A stretch of 48,608 nt of DNA, counting the filler, from Jimgerdemannia flammicorona (Eukaryota), in the NCBI GenBank assembly GCA_003990765.1. It is 2 parts of 2 records of this genome, joined end to end, with 100 filler letters (N's around TTAATTAATTAA, not from the genome) between each part and the next. Parts side by side here need not be neighbours in the genome. Positions count along the whole stretch, not along the records: positions 24,356 to 48,608 come from RBNJ01000999.1; 1 more part is not named here. One strand, written 5' to 3'. Numbering within the stretch: the first letter of the stretch is position 1; every line of letters begins with the position of its first letter. Below the pieces are notes generated by a model. That model saw only the letters and a program-made list of their open reading frames with translations, was not told the origin of the DNA and made no database searches. Below, piece by piece: positions 9,412 through 40,300 of this stretch. Made by a program: the position numbers and the translations under genes.

Positions 9412-10372
9412 ATGTCCAATCTCACATGGTTCCTCCTCGCCGCTCTCCTCTTTGCCATTGGCATCGGTCCGTCAAACAGCTACGTTGCTGTCCCTCGAGC
9501 CGGGACTGTGGCAGTAGTCGTGGGAACCAAGTGAGTAAACCTCTATGACATGACCCCACCCGTGACTTGTTCTCTTTCTTTTAATCGGTTTGCATTCTTC
9601 CCACTCCCCTCCAGGGTATACATCCAGGGCGGATACACGACCGTCCAGGGCAGAAATGGCGGACCTCCAACCAATGATATGCTCATCCTCCCGATCGATC
9701 AGAGCTTCAACCTGAGCAACCCACCCTGGGATCCGGCTAGCGGCACGTTCCCTGGTCCGGCTATTCAAGGTGTGTAGGCCTATGTTAGTGTCTCCGAAGC
9801 ACCATTTTAACCATCGTATCGTCATTCACATAACCATGACATATCTTCCAATCACCCATTCCCTTTGCTCAACCCAGGCCAAATTGCCGGCTGCGGCGGC
9901 TACAACAATACTATTATCTATTTTTTTGGTGGGCAGTACGAGATGGGGACGTTCAACAATGACACCAACATGCTCTGGACTTTCGACACCACCAACAACA
10001 CCTGGGGCCAACCCACCAACTACATAGGCGCCCCACCACCGGCTGTTGACTCCCACAGCGGCGTCTCCCGATATGCCGACAACTCCATCTGGGTGTTTGG
10101 CGGCGAGGAAAATCAGGGCAGAGGTGCCAGACTCTTCAGCTCTACATATAAGCTCGCCACGTATCCTACTTTAACCTGGAATCTCGTCGGTGGCAACGCG
10201 CCTGGCGGAGGGCGACAAGCTCATACGGCTAACCTACTATCTGATGGGAGAATGGTCATATTGGGGGGGAAATGTCAATCAGACTTGTGTCCATTTTCCG
10301 AGGTGCTTGTGTTCAATACAAACTCGAGCCTTTGGAGTGTTCTCGTAAGTAGGAGGGGAGGGAGTTGTGTGG

Positions 10373-10412
<40 letters not shown>

Positions 10413-11771
10413 TTTTTTTTTTTTTATTCTTTTTTTTTTTTTTTTTTTTTTTTTTTTGTGATGTGTATTTATGCCTAGACATTTATTCACCCTTGACCAT
10501 ATGACAGAACGCCTCCCTTGCGGGTGACGCTCCTCTTCCGCGCATCAGCCATATTTCCGTCACAAGTGAGATTATTATTATTATTATTATTTTAAACCTC
10601 ATTAGTACAATAATCAGTTTCGTTCATCGACCAAAATTCACGCGAAATTTGGTTGCTTGTATTATAGCGAATGACGACAAAATCATTATTCACGGCGGGG
10701 AACCCATAGAAACATCCGGTATAGATAAGTTTGTTTAGCGGCATGGCGTGCAAAATTCATGATGCATACATCAGCATCTCACCTGATTTACGACATTAGA
10801 TCTCGCGGTGCTTGACATGAGGGCTGTGAACTTGACATGGAGCATGCCCATGACAACGGGATTGGCCCCATCACCGCGCTTCGCTCATTCGGCCGTCATG
10901 GTCGGGACCATAGCATTCATCATGTTTGGTAATATATTATGTACACGGTGAATTTTCGTTTTTTATTTTTTGTGGGTGGTATAAACTCACCATTCCTATT
11001 TCGATATTACATTCTTATTTTCTAGGTCAAATAAATAACACCGTCGACAACAAAATCTATGCCCTGGATACCGACAAATGGACCTGGCTCCAAACTTACA
11101 ACCCCTCCCATCTTGAGTACACGAATACGGGGAACGTTCCTTCCAATTCGACGCCGTCCCTGTCGCCCACAACACTGACGACGGGATCGCCTACGGAGGA
11201 GTTGCCTATAGAGTTGCCTTATATGGCCATCGCAATGTACATTGCCGTATCAATCTGCGTCATCGGCATCTCCGCCGCAGCGATCGCCGGTGTTCTCATT
11301 TGTAAACGCCGGAGGGCAGACCCCAAAGGTCCGACGCCACCAAATCTTGTCGGTCCCAACGTCCTCCGTCCTTACGACCCCTACAACAACTTGAATCACA
11401 TGCAACCGTTACTTGGAGGCGTCAACATCCAAAAACCTTACGACCCCAACAACAACCCGGGTCCGATGAAACCGTATCTCGTCAACCCCAACCTCGAAAA
11501 ACCTAACGACCCCAACGACAACCCGAGCTCGATGCAACCGTATCTCGCTGACCCCAACGCTCAAAAACCTAACGACCCCAGCGACCACCCGAGTCCAATG
11601 CAACCGAATCTCGTCGACCGCAACGTCCGGAAACCCTACGAGCCCTCCTACTGTCGGCACGCACCTCCTGTTGGAAATGTTGCCCAACTACCTACGTTCG
11701 CGACCGCAGCTCTGTTAATACTGCCCGATTACTGGGAGGAAAAGGAGAAGACAGAGGCCACAGATCAGTAG
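9412..11771 (+). CDS. Type I membrane kelch-repeat protein, paralog 2
   Basis: Same exon structure and motifs as paralog 1 (MSNLTWFLLAALL..., TM MYIAVSICVIGISAAAIAGVLIC then KRRR); exon 5 donor altered (see findings). Confidence 0.85.
10375..10457. repeat. Poly-T tract in intron 3 of paralog 2
   Basis: ~80 nt nearly pure T; absent from the equivalent introns of paralogs 1 and 3. Confidence 0.9.
11340..11645 (+). repeat. Coding 66-nt tandem repeats in paralog 2 tail
   Basis: MKPYLVNPNLEKPNDPNDNPSS / MQPYLADPNAQKPNDPSDHPSP units. Confidence 0.85.
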
Positions 11772-13911: not shown

Positions 13912-16087
13912 ACTTAGTGCCTATTAGTTAGTAATTTAAGATAAATTCCTTACTTTCAAGCTGAATAATAAATAACTACTATTATCCAAACAACTATATA
14001 AATTGAACTGAGATATCTAGAAAAGATGGATATGAGACCACCAGTATTCTATAGATATACTTTAGATAAATTGATCATTACCTTCATTGATGATTTTAAG
14101 CAATATGCTACTGTAAGAACTTTGACAGTAATACAGCAAGTAGTCCTCTTGCTCTTCAGTCTCCAAGGACTAGCAAGAACAGTATTTGTAGCTGCAACTT
14201 ATGTGAGAAATGATGACAATACAGTACTAATAATATAGAAGGCTTGGCTTTAAACTATCTACTATATATATGAGATCAAGCAAGCTCTAATAGATTGGCT
14301 CAATACAACCTATCAAGAAATGAGTAAGGATTCAAATATATTTTATACTAGAATCTGATATTAGATAATTCTGGCAGATTATACTGCTGCTATTTGAGAT
14401 TAAGTAGCTAAAGTAACCTTTATGAAAGAAGTTCACTCAGAGATAGTTCTAGCTATCTACTCATCACTAGTAGTTCTGAATCTATCACAAAAAGTTACCT
14501 ATACTCAGTGATACTAGATAGCCAGACATCCTCAAGACTATATAATAGAAAGAGTCACTAGAGTTAGAATTGAAGCACCTAAGACAACCAGTATGATCTC
14601 TACTATAGTGATTAATTGAAACACACCTCAGCCAAGAGCTACTAAGTAGTAGAGAAATAGTGACCCCATAGAGGAACTTACCAAGAAGTTTGCTAAAATG
14701 ATAGTCCACCTAGAAGATATAGTAAAGAAAATTAAAGGAAGAGACCACTACTCAGTTCAGAAATTTGCCACTATCTCAGATAAGAAGAGAGGTATCTGCT
14801 ACACTTGTGAAGAAGAAGGTCACTACTCATATGAATATATATATAAGTAAAATCAAGTGTAAGATCCAGCCAAGCAATACTACTCAAAATAAGAAATAAG
14901 CCAATACCATCACCTTGAAGGAAATTGAGGAATCAGATGAAGAGAAATGGAAAGCCTATTCTGCAGGAAAGATGTCCACAAATAACCCTATAAGAGACCA
15001 CCAGGGAGACTCAAGAAGAATTCTGTAGAAAAGTAAATAGAAACTACTACAGCAAGTCAAGGTGAATAAATGGATCAAGATATGGAGCTAGAACAGACTG
15101 TTTAAGATATCATCTAAGGAATTACTCCAGCCAGTGAAGGAGAAAAGAAGAAGAAGCTTTGCAAAACCAAGATCTTTAAGTATGATATCTTCAAGGACCT
15201 CAGTTAATAAAAGATCAATACAATCTTTGGCCAGCTAGTAGAAATACCCATATTCAGATAACAAATGAGATATGGACTTACTGAGATAACTAAGGAGCAA
15301 GGTTGAAAGATAACTAAGGCCAACAATATTCAAGAAGACTCAGAAGAAGATAGTGAAGACAATTACAAGATCTCTATCTATATAACCTATCAGATTGAAG
15401 ACAGAATCTTTGAAGCTATTATTGACACAGGAGTAGAAGAATGTCTCCTCAGCAAGAAAGCAGTAGACTGCCTAGGTTGGAAAGTTGAAAAGGCAACTAA
15501 ATTGATATTTGTCATATGTAACAGATAACACAAGAGCCACATCTCTGAAAAAGATCTAAGATGTTCCCATCAAGTTTAGAGGAGCAACTATTCTAGTAGA
15601 TATGATCATAACTAATGCCACCAATTATGACATCCTTATTGGTAACCAGTGGCTTCATAAAGCCAAGGTAGTAATTGATCTGAATGCCTAAAAGATACAG
15701 ATCATCTACCAAGACCAGAAGATGAGAATCTTCATTAATATCAATAAAGGAGTACTGTCTGAAATAGAGAAAGAAGAAAGTGAGAAAGAAGAAGTCTATA
15801 TGGTAACTACTTAGAAAAAGAAGAAGAAAGTCAGATAGATCAGTAAAGAAGAATGGTATAAGAAGATTGCAGAAGGATATATACCATAAGAAGTCTGCTC
15901 TCATGAAATCAAAATATACTATGGTGAGCACATCAATGACTGCTATCAACATAGCATTGATATCAGAAAGATCTATCAGGAAAGAAGACAGAAGGCTCTT
16001 GAAAAATAGGTAAGAAAAGAGGGGGAGAAGGAAGAGAATGATGAACTATCAGCCCTTCTGGAGAATAGTGATGATGAAGAAGAAACC

Positions 16088-16500
16088 AAGGTCAAGATTC
16101 AGAGAATCCACCCTGATACAGTTCTACCAAAATATAAATCAGAGAATATAGCTGAAATAGATATCACCATAGTAGAAAAAACTGTACTAGAGCTTCAGAC
16201 AATCACTCTACTTACAACTGGTCTAGAGATGATCATTCCAAAGAACTATGTTGAAATTCTCAAAACAAGAAGCAGTCTGGCTAGAAGTGAAATTATAATT
16301 GAAGGAGGAGTCATTGATTTAAATTATATTAGAGAAATATTACTTATTGCTAAAAACTATAATCTTACAATTCTATTGTCAATCAAGAAGAAGGACCAAC
16401 TAGCACAGATGTTAATCTTCTCAGTTCTTCAGCCAAAGATCATGGAAGTCAGGAAGTTAGAGGAAATGGAAAGAGGAAAGAAAGGATTCAGATCCACAGA
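16088..16500 (+). pseudogene. dUTPase domain inside pol, between protease and RT
   Basis: All five trimeric dUTPase motifs in degenerate form: AEIDI, RSSLA, GVIDLNYIREI, KDQLAQ, RGKKGFRST; in frame with RT. Confidence 0.9.
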
Positions 16501-18117
16501 AAGAGAAGTATTCATTAGTACCAATATTACTAAATTGGATCACAAGAAGGAGGAAACTATCAACAAGTATAGCTATATTATTGAAAATGAATTTCCACTT
16601 AAGAAGGAACTCAAGAAGATACTCTATGAATTTGAGAATGTCCTAGCCATAGATTTCAAGGATATCAAAGAAAAGATCCCATACTACTATTATGAGATAA
16701 ACATAGGAGACACTGAACTAATTTACCAAAAAGTAAGACCAATACTGCTAGCCTACCATAACTGGCTTAGAGAAGAAATCAAGCAGATAGAAGAAGCTAG
16801 TATCATTAAAGAAACCAGTAGCCCCTGGGCTTCACCAGTTGTACTAGTCCCTAAAAAAGGAAGCAAGCCAAGAGAATTCACTTTAAGACTGTTTACTAAT
16901 TATAGAAAGCTCAACTTGATTACTAAGAAAGCTATTACTCCTCATCAGTAATATCCTCATAACTCTGAAAGATAAAGCACAGTACTATAGTACCTTGGAC
17001 TTATACTCAGAATTTTATCAAATTAGCCTCACTGAAGTAGCAAGTAAAAAGTCAGTCTTTATTACCTCTATATCTATCTGTAAATACTATTCAGAATATA
17101 TAATGCCCCTGCAAGCTTTTAGTAAATGATGAATAAAATCTTCCAATATGACATAGAAAGATAGATGATGGTCTATATAAATGATATTATTATCTATAGT
17201 AAGATATCTGAGAAATATCTGCAATATATCCAGTAGATGATAGAGAAGCTAAGACAGTATGGTCTTTACATCAAGCCCAAGAAGTATAAGTTTGTGGAAA
17301 TCAAGATTATCTATCTTGACCATATCATCAATTGAGATGAAATATACACAGACCCCCTCAAGATTCAAGCAATAGTAGTATACCTAAGGTCCACTATAGT
17401 TACCAAAGTCCAAGCTTTCATGGAACTTGCCTTCTACTACTGAAGATTTATCAGAGGATTCTCTAATATTATAAGCCCAATTTATGAACTCAACAAGAAG
17501 GATATCAAGTTCCAATAGACTGATAGGCAATAAAAAGTATTTGATGAGCTTAAGGTCAGACTAACTTAGGTATAATTATTCTTACTACTATTTATCAAAA
17601 CCAACTTAAGAAGTATCATGGCCAATCAATGGAGTAATGCCACAGCCCTCAAGGTTACCAGTACTATATAATGAGCTATAAAAAGACAGTGATATTCTAC
17701 TGAGTCACCAACTATAGAGGAATCTTTTGATATAATCTAGAGTATAGTACAAATATACTTATCATAGATTTTATATTTCAAGGTACCAGAACTGAATAAG
17801 TTTCAAGAATACTTCAAGCTTAAGCAACTACTGAATTCACAACCAGAAATGAGAAAAGAAGACTGGATCTGAAAATGCTAACTCTCTTATACTCAAATTA
17901 CTATCCCTAAATGAGTGAACAAGTTGTTTAGAGAAGACAAAACAGCTCTAGCTCATCTTTGAGAAGTAACCCCAACAGACTTCAGACATATCAAGAGACA
18001 ATATTGAGAGAATATAATGATATAAATTACACAGTATAAAGAGATATAAATTATGGAAGCCTAGGAGTTTGAGTGAATAAGATATCTTAGAGATGAATTA
18101 CTTATTCAGAAGAAAGT

Positions 18118-20101: not shown

Positions 20102-22627
20102 ATGCCCAACCTCAAATGGTCCCTCCTTGCCACCCTCCTCTTTGCCATTGGCATCGGCCCCGCAAACAGCTACGTCGCTGTCCCTCGAGCCGGGACTGTG
20201 GCAGTACTCGTGGGAACTAAGTGAGCAAACCTCCATGATTTTTTGTCCCCTTGCTCCCTCCCTTTCGGCGACTTGGCGAAAGAAACTGTCTCTTTCATTT
20301 TAAATAGCTTAACGTCTGTTTGAATTTTTCTCATTTTCTCGTAGAGTATACGTCCAGGGCGGGTACACCACCGTCCAGACCACTGGTAACGGACCTCCCA
20401 CCAACGACATGCTCATCCTCCCGATCGACAAGAGCTTCGACCTGAGCAACCCACCCTGGGATCCGGCCAGCGGCACGTTCCCGGGTCCGGCTATTCAAGG
20501 TGTGTAGGCCTATGCTCGTGTCTCCGAAGCATCATTTTAACCATCACATCGTCATTCACATCCTCCTTCCAATCATTCATTTCCCTTCGCTCAACCCAGG
20601 TCAAATTGCCGGCTGCGGTGGCTTCAACAATACTATTATCTATTTTTTTGGTGGGCAGTACGTCAACGGGACGTTCAACAGTGACACCAACATGCTCTGG
20701 AGCTTCGACACCACCAAGAACACCTGGGGTCAACCCACCAACTACATAGGCGCTCCGCCACCACCCGTCGACTCCCACACCGGCGCCTCCCACTATTCCG
20801 ACAACTCCATCTGGGTGTTTGGCGGCGAGTCAAGTTCAGCCGGTACTACGCTCTTCAGCTCCTCATATAAGCTCGCCACCTATCCTACTCTGACCTGGAG
20901 TCTCGTCGGTGGTAGTGCGCCTGGCGGAGGGCGACAAGCTCATTCGGCCAACCTACTGTCTGATGGGAGAATGGTCATATTGGGGGGGGCCTGTCAAACA
21001 GGCATGTGTCCATTTTCCGATGTGCTTGTGTTTGATACCAACTCGGGGCTTTGGACTCTTCTCGTAAGTAGGAGGGGAGGGAGTTGTGTCGATTCCTTTA
21101 TTTCCTCTCCGTTTCGGTGATGTGTGTTTATACCTAGCAATTTATTCCCCCTTTGACCATATATCAGACCGCCTCCCTTGTGGGTACCGCTCCTCTCCCG
21201 CGCATCAGCCACATTTCCGTCACCAGTGAGTTTTTTTTTTTTATTTTATTTCATTTATAAAAAAAAAAAAAACATTCGCGTACATTTGCTACATTTATTC
21301 ATCGACCGAAATTCATGTGAAATTCGGTTTCTTGTATAATAGCACATGACAACAAAATTATTATTCATGGCGGGGAACTCGCTTCAGGGTTGGGTACAGG
21401 CGGTAAGTTTGAGGTTTCTTTATTAAGTGGAGTGGCATCAGAATCTCACCTGATTTGCGACATTAGACATCGCAGTGCTTGACATGAAGGCCGCGAACTT
21501 GGCATGGAGCGTGCCAGCGACAACGGGAACGGCCCCAACATTGCGCTTCGCCCATTCGGCCGCCATGGTCGGGACTATTGCATTCATCATGTTTGGTAAT
21601 ATATTATGTACACATGGTGGATTTTGGTTTTATCTTTGAGGGTGGTATAAACTCACCATCCATGCATTCTTATTTTTTAGGTCAGTCGGGCACCACCATC
21701 GACAACAAAATATATGCCCTGGATACCGACACTTGGGCCTGGCTCCAAACCTACAACCCCTCGCACCTTGAGTATACCAATACGGGGAACGTCCTTTCCA
21801 ACCCATCGGTTACGGGATCGCCTGCAACACCCATTACAGGGTCGCCTACGGGGTTGTCCACGGGGTCGCCTGGAGTTTCGTCTACGGAGCCGTCTCCGCC
21901 CATACCCATTGCAATGTACATTGGCATAGGGTTTGGAGCCGTCTGCGTCGCCGCCGCAGTGATCGCCGGCTTTCTCTTTTATAGACGCCGGAAGCAAGAT
22001 TACAAAGATCCGTACGTTGATCAGAATCCCGTCGTTCCCGATGTCCATAATTCTTACCACTACACCGACCACCCGGGTCAGATACAACCGAATCCCGTCG
22101 TTCCCGATGTCCACAATCCCTACCACTACAACGACTACCCGGGCCAGATGCAACCGAATCCCGTCGTTCCCGATGTCCACAATCCTTACCACCACAACGA
22201 CCAGCAACCGCATCTCGTCCTCCCTGATGTCCACAATCCTTATCCACACAACGATCAGCAACCGCATCAGGTTGTCCCCGATGTCCACAATCCTTACCCC
22301 CACAACGACCACCCGAATCCGATGCAACAGAATCTCGTCGGTCCCAACGGCCACAAATATTATGACCCCAACGACTATCCGCGTCCGGTGCAACCGCGTC
22401 CCGTCAGCCCCGAAGTCCAAAAACCTAACGACCTCAACGTCGGCCCCAAAATTCAGAAACCTAACGACCCCAACGTCGGCCCCATCGTCCACAAACCTAA
22501 CGACCCCAACGTCGGCCCCATCGTCCACAAACCTAATGTCCCATCCTTCTCTCCGCACGCCCATTCTGCTGGAAATTTCGTCGAACCGGCTACGTCTGCG
22601 ATCGCTGAGAGGGGAAGGGGGCAATGA
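20102..22627 (+). CDS. Type I membrane kelch-repeat protein, paralog 3
   Basis: Same 7-exon structure; MPNLKWSLLATLLFAIG signal; TM MYIGIGFGAVCVAAAVIAGFLFY then RRRK; longest repeat tail. Confidence 0.9.
22020..22545 (+). repeat. Coding tandem repeats (66-, 54- and 36-nt units) in paralog 3 tail
   Basis: QPNPVVPDVHNPYHYNDYPGQ, QPHLVLPDVHNPYPHNDQ and VGPIVHKPNDPN units. Confidence 0.9.
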
Positions 22628-34494: not shown

Positions 34495-37170
34495 CTACAA
34501 ATCATCATATGATAACACTTGTCGTTCGGCCCTCGCCGCCCTCGGATCCATCGGTAACTGTGCACGTGGGTCCAACATATATCCAGATTCCGAAGATGGG
34601 GCATCTAAAGGTGCTGCCAATTGATGCATTGTTGCTACTCGGTCTATTATTCGTGAATGTCAAAATGCGTAAATAATGATAGATGTTTCTAACCGAGCGA
34701 ATATACTTAGAGCAATCTGATAAATATGAACCAACCTTGGAGTGATATGGATTTCTCTTGCGGTGCGAGGCTGGATAAATAATCTGTGGCTTCACCCTGC
34801 TTAGCCAACATGCCATCTGGAGTACAAATTAGTTATCAGTGAAATCAATTAGACAGAGACAACCGATTCAAAGCGTCTTAAATACTGGAAGCAATGATGG
34901 CCAAGCACGAGGGATACGCACCGTCATCTTGCCAGGGCACGTTACCAAACCCGACACGGTTACGTTCAGGAATTTTGGCCCGGTTTACTACCAATGCCAG
35001 ACAAAACCGTATATATACGTACGATTAATTCAAGACATATATGGTGAAGTATAACAAGTGTGATTTTTAATGCTCAAAATAAAGCAATCTCGAATTGCAA
35101 AGTTATTGAAGTGCAATATCTACCTTTGATGGAACGTCTTCCCAATACACTTCCGTTCATGTGTTGTATCGCCTTTAGAGCCTGATCCTTTCTGTCAAAG
35201 GTAATAAAGGCAAACCTAAACCATTTCCATGCAATATGACATCGCCAATAATAAATAGTCAATGCGCAAAACGTTGATTAGCGCTTTCTCGATTCATATG
35301 ATTCTCGCCGCTAACAACCGCAAATCGATAACAGATTGTTGTATGACTGCGTACTCTTTTCCTTCTACCATTTTGACATGCTTGATCTCTCCGAAGCGCT
35401 CAAATGCGAGGCGAAGAGCTTTCTCCGTAACGTTTTGTAACTCTCCCACGTAGATTTTAGTGGCAAAGAACTCAGTATCGATGTAGCTAGCAGCAGCAAC
35501 ATAGGGCTAATTTCGAACCCCATAAATCAGAATCGTGCAGCCAGGTGGTGGCATATCAATGGCGTTCGGTGAGCATTCAATTGTTAAACCAAAAATAATA
35601 TATATATATAATAAAATAGAAAAATAAAAAAAGGAGGGGGGGAATAACAACGGTGGAGCGGCAAATCTTGAAAAAAGAAAGAGGACCCACATCATCCATC
35701 TGTCTCCATCTATTTGCACTTCTCCTACGCCCTTCTTCTCTGTCTCTTGACCTCCTAGTGTCCCTACGGACACGTTCCCTGGACACAATATCACTCTGCT
35801 TACAATATCCTCTAGTGCTCGCGGATTTATGTTCGAACATATTTCCATCCTCGCCCTCGTCTGATATTCTACTGGTTCTGTCAGATCGCTCTGTGTAAAA
35901 TTTTCCACGCCGCCGCTTTACACGGCCGAACTCATCTACTTCGTCGCTGGGAGGGGATGGTGAGCGGGTTGAAGAACGTGTAGGGCTGCGACTTCGGCTG
36001 CGACTTGACCGTTCAATAATCGATGGCCAACGTCGCTTGTTATTATTTTTGAGTGCAGCCATTTGGTGGGCTCTATTGTCATCAACATTGTGATTACCAA
36101 GATATTTGTGATAGCGCCCCCGTCGGTTGCCAAGGCGTTCGTCTTCACTATTCCAGGAGGAAAGCGAGCTAGAAGAAGAGTAGCTAGACACAGAGTCATC
36201 GTCATCATCTTCGCCAATCGCGTCCTTGTTTCGTCGTAAATCATTTAATGGTCTTAACGAATGATTATCCATCTCATGAGAAGAAGTTGATGTCAACCGA
36301 AAATTTGACATTGATTGCGGAAGAGATCTAAAATCAAGAGGGACAGATGGTCTCAAAGACATCGCATGGGCCAACGAAAACCCCGCAACATAAAACAAAC
36401 CAAGAAACGAAACCCTAACCTCTGCTGATCTTGTTCATGTGACGTTGTGGCGACGATCATCGGCATGATCCGGTCTTTTTGCTTTTCATCCAAATCCATT
36501 TCATCCACAGCCAGAGTAGGTGATGTACTACATATGCATAAAAAGTCAGATATAGAGAAACTTTCCGCAAAATGTAGACAGTAGAGGAATGGAAGGAATG
36601 CATACATCTTAGAAGGATGAACAGGTAGTATTAATGTCGAATCGTTCAGCGGAGATGGGGCGAACACCGATGATGAGAATAGTTGCATCCTGTCGTGACC
36701 GTCAGTATGGGCTGTGTCTGTATGTAGCGATGGTGCTTGTGTTTCGTCTGTGATCTTTGAGGCCAAATTGTCAATTGCTGTGTCCCAGTCATTTAAAGGA
36801 GCTCCACTCGTGTTGGGGTTTCTGGGTTTCTCTCCGTCCGTTGCAATGATACGGGCCACGTTTGATTCCGAGCGCGGAACCGTGTCTGTTGATGTCGTCG
36901 GGGTGGCCTTCCGTTCGATAGTGCTGGCGTGCTTGAAAAGGAGAATTAAACAAAGAACATTAGATCCCCATATGCGGTGTCCTGGTTCCGGATGAAACAA
37001 CCGGCGGGTCCTACCAGGGATACGGCTGGCTTTGGTGTGTCCTTCACGTTAAGTACGGTCGAAAGCAAGTCGAAAGCGGAGGGTTGTTTGTTGGCCTCGT
37101 GTTGTAATTCAGCTTGCTTCTCCTTGAGTTTCCTCAGACGTTCTTTTTTCTGTCTCAAACGCTCGTCCAT
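34495..37170 (-). CDS. RS/RD-rich single-RRM protein, NELF-E-like architecture
   Basis: N-terminal basic coiled coil MDERLRQKKERLRKLKEKQ; SRSRSRSP/RD-rich exon; spliced RRM KIYVGEL...AFERFGEIKHVKMVEGKEFAFITF...AIQHMNGSVLGRRSIKVNRAK; C-terminus ERQVLSYDDL*. Confidence 0.85.
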
Positions 37171-37312
37171 GGTTTACCAACACAGGAGGAAAAGGTACCA
37201 GGAGGGAAAAGTGCCAGTGCATTGTGTGATAAAGAAGTCACAAAAAAAGTTGTGACTGCTCATCTGTCCTTTTTATTTATTTTTTATCCAGCCACATTCG
37301 CACGACAGTGCA
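37171..37312. promoter_or_regulatory. Compact bidirectional promoter (RRM gene / DBP4)
   Basis: 142 bp between divergent ATGs; inverted repeat GTCACAA..TTGTGAC 37237-37256; PAC-like GCTCATC 37258-37264. Confidence 0.6.
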
Positions 37313-40300
37313 ATGCCTCCGAAACCCCGTAAGAACAAACGCCAGGCGGAGTCAGACGAGCTATCCGCACTCGAGCAGAGATCCAAAGATCCCGTACGTT
37401 CCTCCTATCATACCCCACATCCATCCCATTACACATTTCGTACTCTCCTTACCTTATCGCGATCGATTTTCAGGATGCGTTTGCCACGGCCACGCTCTTC
37501 TCCGAGCTGCCCTTATCCATACGAACACAGGAAGGCCTCAAACGCGCCAACTTTATAGAACTGACAGATATTCAGCGCAAGGCGATACCCCTTGCTCTGG
37601 CGGGCAGAGATATCCTTGGTGCAGCGAAAACTGGTAGTGGCAAGACCCTCGCTTTTCTTGTTCCGGTAAGGTTCTTAGAGGAAATTTTTTCCAGAAGTCT
37701 TGACCTTTCGCCGATTCTTTGTAGTTTTTGGTGGTTAATGGGCGGCAATCCGCGTCTTACACCGGGAAAACGTCACAGATACTTGAACTCTTGTACCGTG
37801 CCAAATGGAGCCAATTTGATGGGCTTGGTGCTTTGGTAATTTCTCCCACCCGCGAGCTGGCTGTTCAGATATTTGAAGTGCTCAAAAAGATTGGGAGGCA
37901 GCATTTGTTGTCCGCTGGTCTTATCATTGGTGGCAAGGACCTTATCATCGAGCAGGAACGGGTGAACCGAATGAATATACTTGTGTGTACCCCGGGAAGA
38001 TTATTGCAACATATGGATCAGACTGTGGGCTTTGATTGCGGTAATTTACAGCTGTTAGGTATGTATATATGGCCGAACTGTCGCATGTGCATAGATATGC
38101 GTGAATACTTCGGATTGTGAGCAGGTAATTTGAATAGCTCAGCATTCGAATCATGGGCGGGGAGGCCAAAGAACTTACCTGCGCCGTTCACGAAGGATAA
38201 ACCAATGGGCATGAGATGCCATTTTCAACAACTTCACGAGCAGGAAGATGAAACCGGCATGTACAAATCATTTCTAGTTCTTCTTCATAATGCCTTTTTT
38301 TCTTTCTTTCTCGTTTCCTGTAGTGCTGGATGAAGCTGACAGGATTTTGGATATGGGATTCGAAAAAACACTTAATGCCATTATCGATAACTTGTCGAAA
38401 CAGCGACAAACGCTACTATTTTCTGCGACACAAACCAAGTCCGTACGTGATCTGGCAAGATTAAGTCTAAAGGTTCGGTTGACATGCACGCACTCTCACG
38501 CCTTTTCTATGTTTTTATTTGTAATTACTGTGGCGACCATGCATTGAATCTGGAATCCATCATGAACAATCACAGAATCCCGAATACGTCGCTGTTCATG
38601 AGAAATCCGAGTTCAGCACGCCGCAAAAGCTCGCGCAGCATTACCTCGTCTGCGACCTACCCCAAAAACTTGACGTTCTCTTTTCTTTCATCAAAACCCA
38701 CTTGACATGCAAAGCTATCGTATTCCTTTCGGCCTGTAAACAGGTTCGGTTTGTCTTCGAAGCTTTCTGCCGCCTGCACCCAGGGGTACCTTTATTGCAT
38801 CTCCATGGCAAACAAAAACAAACAAAGCGCGTCGAGATTTTTGCCAAATTTGTGTCGATGAAGTCGGCATTTTTGTTCGCAACCGACATTGCCGCGCGTG
38901 GGTTGGACTTTCCAGCTGTTGACTGGGTACTACAGCTCGATTGTCCTGAGGATGCAGATACTTATATTCATCGCGTTGGGAGGACGGCGAGATTTGATGC
39001 TGCAGGGCAGGCGTTACTGTTTTTATTGCCGTCGGAGGAGGAGAAAATGTTGGAACTGCTTAAGACGAAAAAGATACCTGTGGAAAAGATCAAAGTGCGG
39101 CAGAGCAAACAGCAGAACGTGCAGAAGCAGCTACAAAGTCTCTGTTTCCAGGATCCGGAGATTAAATATCTGGGTCAAAAGGTCTGTAAGTCAACAAAAA
39201 TGATGATTTTGTGGGCAATGCGACTCCCTCTTTCGTAAATATGTATTTGAGGCCGACACTGATATGAATGATCGTTTAACCGTTATATATACACCAGGCT
39301 TTCATATCATACATGCGATCCGTATACCTGCAGAAGGATAAATCCGTCTTCAAGGTGCATGAGCTCCCAACCGAGGAATATGCTACCGCGCTCGGGTTGC
39401 CAGGTACACCAAAGATCAAATTTATCACGGTAAGTTTTCTTACGTTCACTTCGCCCATTGCTTTTGAGAAGAGTCGTGATTCTAATAATCCTGTGTTTAT
39501 ATTTATCCATCCCTGTCACCAATATGGCACCCATAACAGAAATCCCACGCTAAAAATGCGACAAGGCAAGTGCCCAAAGAGGTAGAAGAACTAGATTCTT
39601 CAGAGGAAGTGGAAAGTGAAGTAGAGGAACGAAGGTTGATGCGAAAGAAAAATGAGATAAATACTGAATCGTCAACAGATGATAGTGAGTCAGAAGGAAA
39701 AGGAAAAGGGAAACGACAATTGAAGAAAAATTATGCGAGTAAACCGCACGAAGACGATGACGTTGAAGAAGAGAAGAAATCGAAGGTCTGTAAACTGCAT
39801 GCACATATGCTGTCTGCTCTTTTATCTTCCGTTCCTAATCGCACATTTTAACCCCTCCCTTTCTCTTCCCTCCCCCACGCTTTTCGTTCTCGCAGGTGGT
39901 GAAACCGAAGACTAAGGTCGATCGAATGTTTAATCGGAAGAATCAAGACATCTTGTCAGTACATTATGGAAGGTTGATTGACCGCGAGGGCGACAAAATC
40001 GTGGCCAATGAGGACGACGACGAAGATAATTTTATCACACTCAAGAGGGTAAACCATGAGTTGGAAGACGGGGAGGAGGTATTTAACTACACTTTTGCCG
40101 AATTCCTTTTTACGTTATAACCATGCAAAATGGATTCGTAACGCTTGGTTTCCTTTCTTTCTTGCATTGTTTCCATCACTTTCAGGCAATGTTACCAATG
40201 TCAAAACGGCAATTAAATAAGACAAAGAAAGAGAGGATCAAGGATCTACCAAAAGGGGAAAGAATTGTTTTCGACGACGAAGGCAGGGTAAGTGCCTGGC

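Follow-up and report, generated by a model that had tools for sequence, protein, structure and literature searches.

A gene in a 48,608-nucleotide stretch of DNA from Jimgerdemannia flammicorona (the window) raises the question of whether an early-branching fungus encodes a counterpart of metazoan NELF-E, as an earlier note on this DNA had proposed. A full-text search of the literature found nothing on NELF in early-diverging fungi, and our literature search likewise found nothing on the CBC-ARS2 hub in the fungal lineages that carry the family described below.

Gene model and protein modules

Scripted splicing of positions 34495..37170 on the minus strand yielded a 9-exon gene with a CDS of 1767 nt that encodes a 588-amino acid RRM protein; it starts with an ATG at 37170 and ends in a stop codon at 34495-34497. 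All introns (8/8) have GT..AG borders. Contigs from two public runs (two studies) bridge seven of them exactly at the predicted borders and the eighth, 36931|37015, is bridged by contigs of one run, such that all eight are covered; the RNA origin of these contigs is a guess and they were used solely for the junctions they bridge. The bridging contigs end near 37056, short of the ATG, which was placed at 37170 because a stop codon lies two codons upstream (ORF 36946..37173) and because the N-termini of the orthologues are conserved. The deposited model, P0001, starts only after the first 202 residues of the spliced product and matches the remaining 386 without a difference. The gene and the modules of its product are as follows.

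34495..37170, minus strand: whole coding gene, from splicing, bridging contigs and the match to P0001
37170-37015, 36931-36606 and 36527-36420, minus strand: exons 1-3
36327-35691, 35506-35355 and 35215-35124, minus strand: exons 4-6
34987-34922, 34816-34736 and 34643-34495, minus strand: exons 7-9
37096..37170, minus strand: N-terminal amphipathic Lys/Arg/Leu helix, residues 1-25, conserved across a subset of the family
37051..37083, minus strand: PSAFDLL / QPFDIF motif after the N-terminal helix, residues 30-40 (alignments A1 and A2)
35949..36011, minus strand: Arg/Ser tract, residues 303-323 (composition)
35901..35948, minus strand: acidic VDEFGR motif followed by a basic KRRR patch, residues 324-339 (alignment A1)
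35703..35780, minus strand: Arg/Asp/Glu-rich tract directly 5' of the RRM, residues 380-405 (composition)
35468..35693, minus strand: pre-RRM helix DPYxAAxxYIDTEF, residues 409-422, across intron 4 (alignment A1)
34974..35458, minus strand: RRM, residues 426-495, across introns 5 and 6 (Pfam RRM_1)
34800..34973, minus strand: post-RRM extension IPERNRVGFGNVPW-QDDDGMLAK, residues 496-518, across intron 7 (alignment A3)
34498..34551, minus strand: C-terminal tail MDPRAARAERQVLSYDDL, residues 571-588, with DPRA and the terminal RxxxxY-DDL (alignment A3)

The strings quoted in the earlier note are all found in the spliced product (LRQKKERLRKLKEK at residues 5-18, an RRM ending in KVNRAKIPERNRVGFGNVPW, and the end ERQVLSYDDL), as are the RS and RD/RE tracts and the single RRM that it had described. 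Residues 291-405 comprise 25% R, 17% S, 9% E and 7% D and include RS runs as well as a brief RRDTRRSRDREEGRRR segment, and the tract preceding the RRM is charged and carries short RD/RE runs without a long RD dipeptide array. In the VDEFGR motif, which is found from chytrid to Mucorales, the D, G and R are invariant in alignment A1, and the region has a pLDDT of ~71 in the AF2 model of the family member P0003; together with the KRRR patch it is possibly a nuclear localisation signal. The pre-RRM helix has invariant D, A, Y, D and F residues in A1 and corresponds to helix 232-242 of the P0003 model, which precedes the RRM. Both RNP2 (KIYVGEL) and RNP1 (KEFAFITF) of the RRM are intact, and the two introns that interrupt this domain lie after VEGK (phase 2) and after SIK (phase 1).

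Identity to the Endogone orthologue P0002 amounts to 67% in exon 1, 90% in the RRM, 91% in the post-RRM segment and 78% in the tail, against 22-35% in the linkers; judged from this pair of sequences, such modular conservation is far from chance. The window further contains Kelch-repeat genes and genes for a dUTPase, coatomer beta, a DEAD-box helicase, a PPR protein and ATP synthase epsilon. These neighbours are all unrelated to NELF and to the CBC, and NELF-A, NELF-B and NELF-C/D are not encoded within the window.

The family and the affinities of its RRM

We gathered 105 family sequences, fragments and near-duplicates included, from Mortierellomycotina, Umbelopsidales, Endogonales, Mucorales, Glomeromycotina, the chytrid Rhizophlyctis and Neocallimastix. 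Their conserved set of modules consists of the N-terminal helix, DEFGR, an Arg/Ser/Asp-rich tract, one RRM, a Trp motif and the C-terminal tail. In the word-based search, the weakest full-length member has a profile score of 197 bits and the next protein one of 98 bits. Among the matches listed, members occur solely in non-Dikarya fungi (Mucoromycota, one chytrid and Neocallimastix), and neither the word-based nor the profile protein searches list a member from Dikarya or metazoans. The word-based searches score ~8000 candidates and the exhaustive profile search gives the best 150 proteins, which are filled by multi-RRM proteins with summed scores; hence, that NELF-E is missing among the listed matches is not evidence against kinship. 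Automatic database names for family members include 'RNA-binding protein 39'.

Pfam RRM_1 (PF00076) matches P0001 with 52.3 bits and P0002 with 53.5 bits (cut-off 20.7), and no domain besides this one RRM exceeds the cut-off in either protein, whether cyclophilin, SPOC or a further RRM. The RRM is modelled with a pLDDT of 96-98 in P0003. Candidate families of RRM proteins carry extra domains, namely a cyclophilin domain, three RRMs, tandem RRMs plus a UHM, or SPOC, and the architectures of cyclophilin E (PPIE), SPEN, TIA1/Pub1, PUF60 and RBM39 were ruled out because the fungal protein has a single RRM without cyclophilin, SPOC or further RRM domains. U11/U12-35K, RBM42 and ALYREF were dropped as identities, since their module order or their ends differ.

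Neither sequence nor fold comparison singled out the NELF-E RRM. When the family profile was run against the PDB, the NELF-E RRM (1x5p_A) scored 49.5 bits, at row 60 of the best 60 of 353 matches, compared with 57.6 bits for the best single RRM, and it is not among the best 60 PDB matches of P0002 or P0178. Foldseek placed it at ranks 21-22 with 29-32% identity. The NELF-E RRM nonetheless aligned to the family profile ungapped over 61 positions (E 3.5e-12) and superposed with a TM of 0.84 at 29% identity. About 20 other RRM proteins score at least as close to the fungal RRM as NELF-E does, and CIRBP, RBM39, PPIE, hnRNP Q and TIA-1 are likewise no more distant; the RRM joins no rival RRM family firmly either. 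Its best single-sequence PDB match is RRM3 of hnRNP Q (2dgu_A; 41 bits, E 9.1e-10), which continues as AKPPDQKR after the RRM where the fungal family has AKIPERNR. The nearest clusters listed in the protein atlas are generic RRM, SR-like or RSB-motif proteins with scores of 0.81-0.87 (lead level 0.9), and of the 30 matches none among those listed is named NELF-E.

These affinities bear on a different explanation, in which the protein acts in splicing or mRNP metabolism as an RRM protein of the SR or hnRNP kind and its conserved ends bind partners other than the CBC. The Y-D-D-L end might then be a [WFY]xx[LIV] ligand, of the Atg8 type or another, the helix might serve as a zipper for dimerisation, and the likeness to NELF-E would be a coincidence. 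The hnRNP Q match with its similar continuation and the neighbours listed in the atlas speak for this explanation, as do the RS tracts and the automatic names of the RBM39 type. The lone RRM, without cyclophilin, SPOC or further RRM domains, speaks against it, and we consider it unlikely.

The Trp motif and the two ends of the protein

In the post-RRM segment the W and both D residues are invariant and the G nearly so (alignment A3). In 92/93 sequences the Trp lies 19 residues past the V of VNRAK, and 20 residues past the KVN of the RRM; KVN and Trp345 of human NELF-E have the same 20-residue span. A helix begins just past the Trp in the P0003 model, at a low pLDDT of 53-59, and such low model confidence at the Trp and tail regions is expected of motifs that fold on a partner. 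According to a recent study, the Trp345 helix of NELF-E binds a pocket of CBP80 that PHAX, NCBP3 and ZC3H18 use as well (10.1101/2023.07.25.550453). At the motif level, the conserved Trp of the fungal family sits where NELF-E carries this helix, and it may bind in the same manner.

An acidic motif follows, with W-x-[DE][DE]DG-x-[LIVM] present in 90 of the 105 family sequences. The motif that serves in ARS2 recruitment has been defined as [ED][ED]GE[ILV] within a disordered, acidic stretch (PMC9402713), and EDGQL of PHAX is functional too. The strict form occurs in 37 of the 105 family sequences, all from Mortierellomycotina; D-D-G-M-L of the 588-amino acid protein departs from it at position 4, as does the PHAX motif. 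The chytrid member differs, with W-x-D-H-D-A and the end Y-D-L.

The tail has the consensus R-x-[IVL]-[LIT]-x-Y-D-D-L at the exact C-terminus. The end R-x4-Y-x-[DE]-[DL] is present in 99/105 family sequences, the remaining six being truncated or fused models, and among 293 proteins compared the pattern matches the same number (99), every one from the fungal family. In alignment A3, with 30 diverse members, the R and Y never vary and the D, D and L hardly do, while the preceding linker of 32-142 residues is not alignable across the family; DPRA sits 2-10 residues upstream of RxxxxY. The Y-D-D-L terminus is also compatible with a generic [WFY]xx[LIV], the pattern of Atg8-binding and sorting motifs. 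To our knowledge, however, Atg8-type motifs need neither an Arg five residues before the Tyr nor a hydrophobic pair between the two.

In structural work, 852-DPRAIVEYRD of ARS2 and 360-DKRTQIVYSDDVYKE of NELF-E bind the groove of CBP20-CBP80 through an R and a Y with RxxxxY spacing, and most non-mammalian NELF-E proteins stop a few residues past the Tyr (PMC5670239). The fungal tail fits this motif, in keeping with the ARS2- and NELF-E-like peptide that the earlier note had recognised, and is a putative ligand of the groove. Its hydrophobic register (Y-3 and Y-2, D-L after the Y, and DPRA upstream) is nearer to ARS2 than to NELF-E, and it lacks the distal xDxF-COOH contact that human NELF-E, ARS2 and PHAX make. 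Searching the PDB with a fragment spanning the post-RRM segment and tail (P0237) gave no match at E<=10, neither NELF-E nor ARS2, so the likeness of the ends is one of motifs, and short ones, without an alignment statistic.

That no statistic ties the two ends to NELF-E or ARS2 favours the SR- or hnRNP-like explanation. Against it, the CBC groove motif does need the Arg, invariant here, and the hydrophobic pair, and a Trp motif plus RxxxxY downstream of an RRM corresponds to one known design; we know of no SR protein that has this combination.

The N-terminal helix is conserved in Endogonales, Umbelopsis, Mortierellomycotina, the chytrid and Neocallimastix, but no gene model from Mucorales or Gigaspora carries it. 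The equivalent helix of P0003 (2-22) has a pLDDT of ~87, with ~25 N-terminal residues ordered. The earlier note had also compared this end with NELF-E, a likeness that PDB searches failed to recover even at E<=10: the N-terminal fragment P0069 gave 0 matches, the 13-sequence profile A2 gave six, NELF-E not among them, and the Neocallimastix N-terminus gave four, all designed proteins. The PDB copy searched presumably includes full-length NELF-E chains, and a 25-residue Lys-rich helix may fall below HMMER detection. In Mortierella, paralogues (P0044, P0057, P0189 and P0265) keep the N-terminal helix and the tail while their RRM decays, which points to the two ends as the likely working parts of a bridging protein.

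A candidate cap-complex adaptor

On balance, our analysis leans towards the 588-amino acid protein being a nuclear single-RRM adaptor that docks on the cap-binding complex with a NELF-E-like layout. Short conserved modules are joined in it by fast-evolving disordered linkers. The C-terminal tail would occupy the RxxxxY site that NELF-E and ARS2 use on the cap-binding complex, and the invariant Trp, 20 residues past the KVN of the RRM, would enter the Trp pocket of CBP80. Additionally or alternatively, the acidic (D/E)(D/E)DG-x-(L/V/M) after the Trp could engage the zinc-finger leg of ARS2 in an EDGEI-type contact. The RRM may hold cap-proximal nascent RNA, and the N-terminal helix with the DEFGR/basic motif could tether a further partner, for which the NELF-B/C-D core is the obvious candidate. 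Against this adaptor weigh the brevity of the motifs, the lack of PDB matches to the post-RRM and tail fragment, the departure of D-D-G-M-L from the strict ARS2 recruitment motif, the deviating chytrid member, the generic [WFY]xx[LIV] fit of the Y-D-D-L end and the missing distal contact. The sequences show the gene model with its splicing, the family, and how its motifs are conserved and spaced; we infer each of these binding steps, the location in the nucleus and whatever effect there may be on Pol II.

A true divergent NELF-E orthologue would be a special case of this adaptor, with which it shares part of its probability, in which the helix would bind NELF-B and the protein would be a fungal NELF subunit coupled to the CBC and nascent RNA. 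We regard this as possible but doubtful. In its favour, the NELF-E modules are all present and in the same order: a basic helix that starts within the first 10 residues, a tract rich in Arg, Asp and Ser that leads into a single RRM with a short beta2-beta3 loop, then the Trp and, near the C-terminus, the RxxxxY tail. The ungapped 61-position alignment and the TM value given above fit as well, as do the family spacing, which equals the 20-residue KVN-Trp345 span of human NELF-E, the lack of Dikarya members among the matches listed, and an end a few residues past the Tyr as in most non-mammalian NELF-E proteins. NELF-B and -C/D are lacking in S. cerevisiae and S. pombe, the two Dikarya yeasts examined, and otherwise widespread in eukaryotes, according to a recent survey (10.1101/2023.02.19.529146).

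Several observations argue against orthology. The RRM is at least as near to CIRBP, RBM39, PPIE, hnRNP Q and TIA-1 as to NELF-E, the three N-terminal PDB searches are without NELF-E, and the helix is missing from every Mucorales and Gigaspora model. Human NELF-E binds NELF-B through residues 1-138 (PMC4940160), compared with the ~25 ordered N-terminal residues here. The tail register is that of ARS2, an ARS2-recruitment-like motif is not a reported feature of NELF-E, and no NELF-E is reported from the single-celled relatives of animals, which would be expected to have an ancient one. The divergent NELF-E that the earlier note had envisaged is supported in part: the module order, the Trp and the tail motif fit, the RRM is not specifically NELF-E-like, and PDB searches with the N-terminus and with the fragment of post-RRM segment and tail retrieved no NELF-E.

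We advance only tentatively the idea that early-branching fungi do have a NELF-E and that this family is it, with its helix seated in a retained NELF-B/C-D core and with the RRM, Trp motif and RxxxxY tail tying that core to the capped nascent RNA via the CBC. If true, a cap-coupled NELF with a NELF-E subunit would be older than animals, at least as old as the ancestor that fungi and animals share, and Dikarya would have lost it, whereas published work places the origin of NELF-E within Metazoa or shortly before. A cap-docking NELF-E layout in fungi would mean either that NELF-E is older or that the design of RRM, Trp helix and RxxxxY arose twice, alternatives that can be tested in culturable and transformable fungi such as the chytrid Spizellomyces, Mucor or Mortierella. 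Independently of NELF, the members of the family are candidate effectors, so far uncharacterised, of the hub at which CBC and ARS2 sort RNA.

Among known systems, RRM3 of hnRNP Q/R (SYNCRIP) resembles the fungal RRM in its short beta2-beta3 loop and AK-x-P-[DE]-x-x-R continuation. The similarity is confined to the RRM; hnRNP Q/R has three RRMs and an acidic N-terminal domain, and lacks the Trp motif and tail. PHAX and ZC3H18 share with the fungal family an acidic [ED][ED]G-x-[LIV] and a Trp at a helix start, and PHAX also has RxxxxY. In contrast, the RNA-binding domain, motif order and architecture of PHAX, NCBP3 and ZC3H18 are different, and none has an RRM directly followed by a Trp motif and a terminal RxxxxY. 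The ARS2/SERRATE peptide is matched in the tail, where fungal DPRA and R-x-[IV]-[VL]-x-Y-x-D-L correspond to 852-DPRAIVEYRD and the L that follows it. The fungal tail nevertheless stops three residues past the Tyr, with no DLDAP and no distal VDFF, and the protein is without the ARS2 core or zinc-finger leg, the RRM being its only Pfam domain.

Metazoan NELF-E differs in that similarity is undetectable outside the RRM, which itself is not specifically NELF-E-like. In place of a long RD repeat the fungal tract has RS and short RD/RE runs, the linker from Trp to Tyr is 32-142 residues long compared with 22 in human, and the fungal family adds the DEFGR and EDGEI-like motifs and an ARS2-like tail register. 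What the fungal proteins share with NELF-E is a basic N-terminal helix, an Arg/Asp-rich tract, one RRM, a Trp shortly after it and RxxxxY in this order, with acidic residues and then a hydrophobic end coming after the RxxxxY, close to the C-terminus or right at it.

Gene model, run contigs and neighbouring loci

Reading the region on both strands and splicing it gave a gene of nine exons on the minus strand.

Exons of the gene
37170-37015, minus, exon 1
36931-36606, minus, exon 2
36527-36420, minus, exon 3
36327-35691, minus, exon 4
35506-35355, minus, exon 5
35215-35124, minus, exon 6
34987-34922, minus, exon 7
34816-34736, minus, exon 8
34643-34495, minus, exon 9

All eight introns are bounded by GT..AG, and the 1767-nt coding sequence yields a 588-aa product that contains every string quoted in the earlier note. 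Seven introns were bridged at exactly the predicted borders by contigs from two public runs of two studies, and the eighth by contigs of one of these runs. The contigs match the window exactly or almost exactly and their RNA origin is an index guess, so intron bridging alone was used. They stop near 37056, short of the ATG at 37170; this start is supported by a stop codon two codons upstream and by conserved N-termini among the orthologues.

The deposited protein of the locus (P0001, 386 aa, named 'hypothetical protein') matches the last 386 residues of our model exactly and lacks the first 202, which include a conserved N-terminal helix. Its start is a Met inside exon 4, so that 36330-37170, covering exons 1-3 and the beginning of exon 4, is left out. 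The run contigs and the orthologues support the longer predicted model over the deposited one.

A DEAD-box helicase gene (Pfam DEAD and Helicase_C) runs from 37314 onwards on the plus strand. Its start is separated from the ATG of the studied gene, on the opposite strand, by 143 bp (37171-37313), and a shared bidirectional promoter is probable for the pair. Elsewhere in the window, plus-strand Kelch-repeat ORFs lie at 1338-1913, 9811-10461 and 20446-21120, about 8-10 kb apart; their Pfam profiles are near-identical, and the window therefore holds three copies of a Kelch-repeat gene. Between two of them, at 16010-16951, sits an ORF of 313 aa with a dUTPase domain.

Family range and conserved modules

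A piece of exon 5 used as query retrieved P0001 and an Endogone orthologue (P0002, 637 aa). With P0002 as query, 32 of 7997 scored candidates passed E<=0.001, 31 of them Mucoromycota relatives and one an insect spenito matched over its RRM only. When 1.84 billion representatives were searched exhaustively with a profile, 31,992 proteins reached E<=0.001; the best 150 were mostly multi-RRM proteins with summed scores, and those among them that extended past the RRM were family members. By name, members come from Mucorales, Glomeromycotina (Gigaspora), the chytrid Rhizophlyctis rosea, Mortierellomycotina and a metagenome. The last profile search added many Mucorales and Neocallimastix proteins; among its best 120 of 186 matches, family members scored from 504 to 197 bits, the next protein 98 bits, and Dikarya proteins at most 66 bits without any family motif. 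No Dikarya or animal member was seen among the matches listed for the P0002 search and the two profile searches. Databases name the family 'hypothetical protein', 'RRM domain-containing protein' or, automatically, 'RNA-binding protein 39'.

Family alignments of 28 sequences (A1) and 30 diverse sequences (A3) revealed conserved modules separated by unalignable linkers.

Modules in N- to C-terminal order
(a) N-terminal helix, MDERLRQKKERLRKLKEK in the window and M-x-x-KLQEKFALVQQMKREKELKE in Mortierellomycotina, with related forms in the chytrid and Neocallimastix; a PSAFDLL/QPFDIF motif directly after it
(b) 35901-35948, minus, acidic VDEFGR motif, then basic KRRR patch
(c) Arg/Ser tract and Arg/Asp/Glu tract
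(d) DPYxAAxxY[IL]DTxF helix, capping the RRM
(e) canonical RRM
(f) post-RRM segment, VNRAKIPERNR-x-GF-x-x-V-x-W-x-[DE][DE]DG-x-[LVM]
(g) C-terminus, 32-142 variable residues, DPRA, then the exact end R-x-[IVL]-[LIT]-x-Y-D-D-L

The acidic run ending in VDEFGR and its KRRR patch are kept from chytrid to Mucorales, and no described motif was found to match them.

Occurrence in 105 sequences, fragments and near-duplicates included; because these motifs define the family, the counts are descriptive and no test
C-terminal tail: 99/105, the remaining six being truncated or fused models
Post-RRM segment: 94/105
W-x-[DE][DE]DG-x-[LIVM]: 90/105
Strict [ED][ED]GE[ILV]: 37/105
N-terminal helix: 35/105

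The helix is absent from the Mucorales and Gigaspora gene models. In 92 of 93 sequences the Trp stands 19 residues after the V of VNRAK. RxxxxY also occurs within the last 30 residues of 12 of 188 other RRM proteins, each time in a different context. Compared with P0002, the window protein has identities of 67% (exon 1), 90% (RRM), 91% (post-RRM segment) and 78% (tail), against 22-35% for the linkers.

A second copy in Mortierellomycotina (P0044, P0057, P0189, P0265) has retained both the N-terminal helix and the RxxxxY-DDL tail. In this copy the RRM and post-RRM segment are degenerate or lack a Pfam match, as if selection had acted on the two ends alone. Two deposited models join the family protein to an unrelated neighbour: a Rhizopus arrhizus protein (P0005) carries an N-terminal ubiquitin-like/CAP-Gly part and P0035 (1127 aa) extends some 530 residues beyond YDDL; both fusions are probably annotation run-ons.

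An AlphaFold2 model of a compact Umbelopsis member (P0003) contained a helix at residues 2-22 (pLDDT ~87), an RRM with its capping helix (96-98), a helix beginning just past the Trp (53-59) and the tail (58-70). This predicted profile is as expected for an ordered RRM between partner-dependent motifs.

Relation to NELF-E

The earlier note proposed a divergent NELF-E. Pfam found RRM_1 and nothing else. With P0002 against the PDB, NELF-E was not among the best 60 of 127 matches, the best single RRM there being hnRNP Q RRM3 (41 bits). Using profile A1, the NELF-E RRM (1x5p_A) came in at row 60 of the best 60 of 353 matches (49.5 bits, E 3.5e-12, 61 positions without gaps), below single RRMs of CIRBP, RBM39, PPIE and hnRNP Q (53-58 bits). 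Foldseek with the P0003 model against the PDB ranked it 21-22 (29-32% identity), after PUF60, Npl3, RNPS1 and cyclophilin 33. These results thus do not single out NELF-E for the RRM; neither does the RRM group firmly with a rival family, and no family, NELF-E included, was clearly preferred.

Against the PDB, an N-terminal fragment (P0069) gave no match at E<=10, a 13-sequence N-terminal profile (A2) six matches without NELF-E, the Neocallimastix N-terminus four, all designed proteins, and a natural fragment of post-RRM segment and tail alone (P0237) none; NELF-E was also not among the 60 matches listed for a half-RRM fragment (P0178). There is therefore no statistical alignment to NELF-E outside the RRM. 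The window encodes no NELF-A, NELF-B or NELF-C/D, and full-text searches found no paper on NELF in early-diverging fungi.

The safest mechanistic reading, which we favour by a little, is an RRM adaptor that docks on the cap-binding complex of the nucleus (CBC). The tail would enter the CBP20-CBP80 groove, the Trp would occupy the pocket of CBP80 or the neighbouring acidic motif would bind ARS2, the RRM would grip cap-proximal RNA, and the N-terminal helix and DEFGR motif would recruit some further partner. Nested within this reading is a true NELF-E orthologue whose helix binds NELF-B, which we consider doubtful. The five modules follow the NELF-E order and the Trp stands at a fixed distance past the KVN of the RRM, a span we take to be 20 residues in human NELF-E, as in the fungal family. 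Also in favour of orthology, no Dikarya member was seen among the matches listed, and the two Dikarya yeasts examined are without NELF in the excerpted survey of pausing evolution (10.1101/2023.02.19.529146); against it, the same excerpts report no NELF-E in unicellular relatives of animals. Against orthology also stand the failed sequence tests, the ARS2-like tail, a helix missing from whole lineages (Mucorales and Gigaspora models) and the short N-terminal part, with about 25 ordered residues versus the NELF-B-binding residues 1-138 of NELF-E in the available text of Vos et al. 2016 (PMC4940160). A chance likeness to NELF-E, with the ends binding other partners, seems unlikely.

Likeness to partners of the cap-binding complex

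For the proposed CBC-docking adaptor, the comparison draws on excerpts of three papers. Groove binding uses an Arg and, five residues from it, a Tyr on which the residue at Y-2 stacks, and an eight-residue extension ending in Phe is missing in most non-mammalian NELF-E (Schulze and Cusack 2017, PMC5670239). Dubiez et al. (10.1101/2023.07.25.550453) give the groove motif as RxxxxY and the ARS2 recruitment motif as (E/D)(D/E)G(E)(L/I/V), and place NELF-E Trp345, in a short helix downstream of the RRM, in a CBP80 Trp pocket also used by PHAX, NCBP3 and ZC3H18. Foucher et al. 2022 (PMC9402713) report this motif as [ED][ED]GE[ILV] and show its binding to the zinc-finger leg of ARS2.

Beyond the earlier note, the analysis adds the ARS2-recruitment-like motif, the DEFGR motif, the decayed-RRM paralogues and the truncated deposited model. 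Judged by these excerpts, the fungal tail shares with ARS2 the RxxxxY spacing, hydrophobic residues at Y-3/Y-2 and D-L at Y+2/Y+3, which is the ARS2 register; the family's DPRA lies just upstream. A predicted helix starts with the invariant Trp, an arrangement also present in PHAX, ZC3H18 and NELF-E. The DDG-x-L beside it fits a relaxed ARS2 recruitment (EDGEI) motif, matched exactly by EDGEL in Mortierellomycotina, whereas the window protein has DDGML, with Met at position 4, in the segment encoded at 34800-34973. Among the CBC partners described in the available text of these papers, NELF-E is the sole one with an RRM, then a Trp helix, then a near-terminal RxxxxY.
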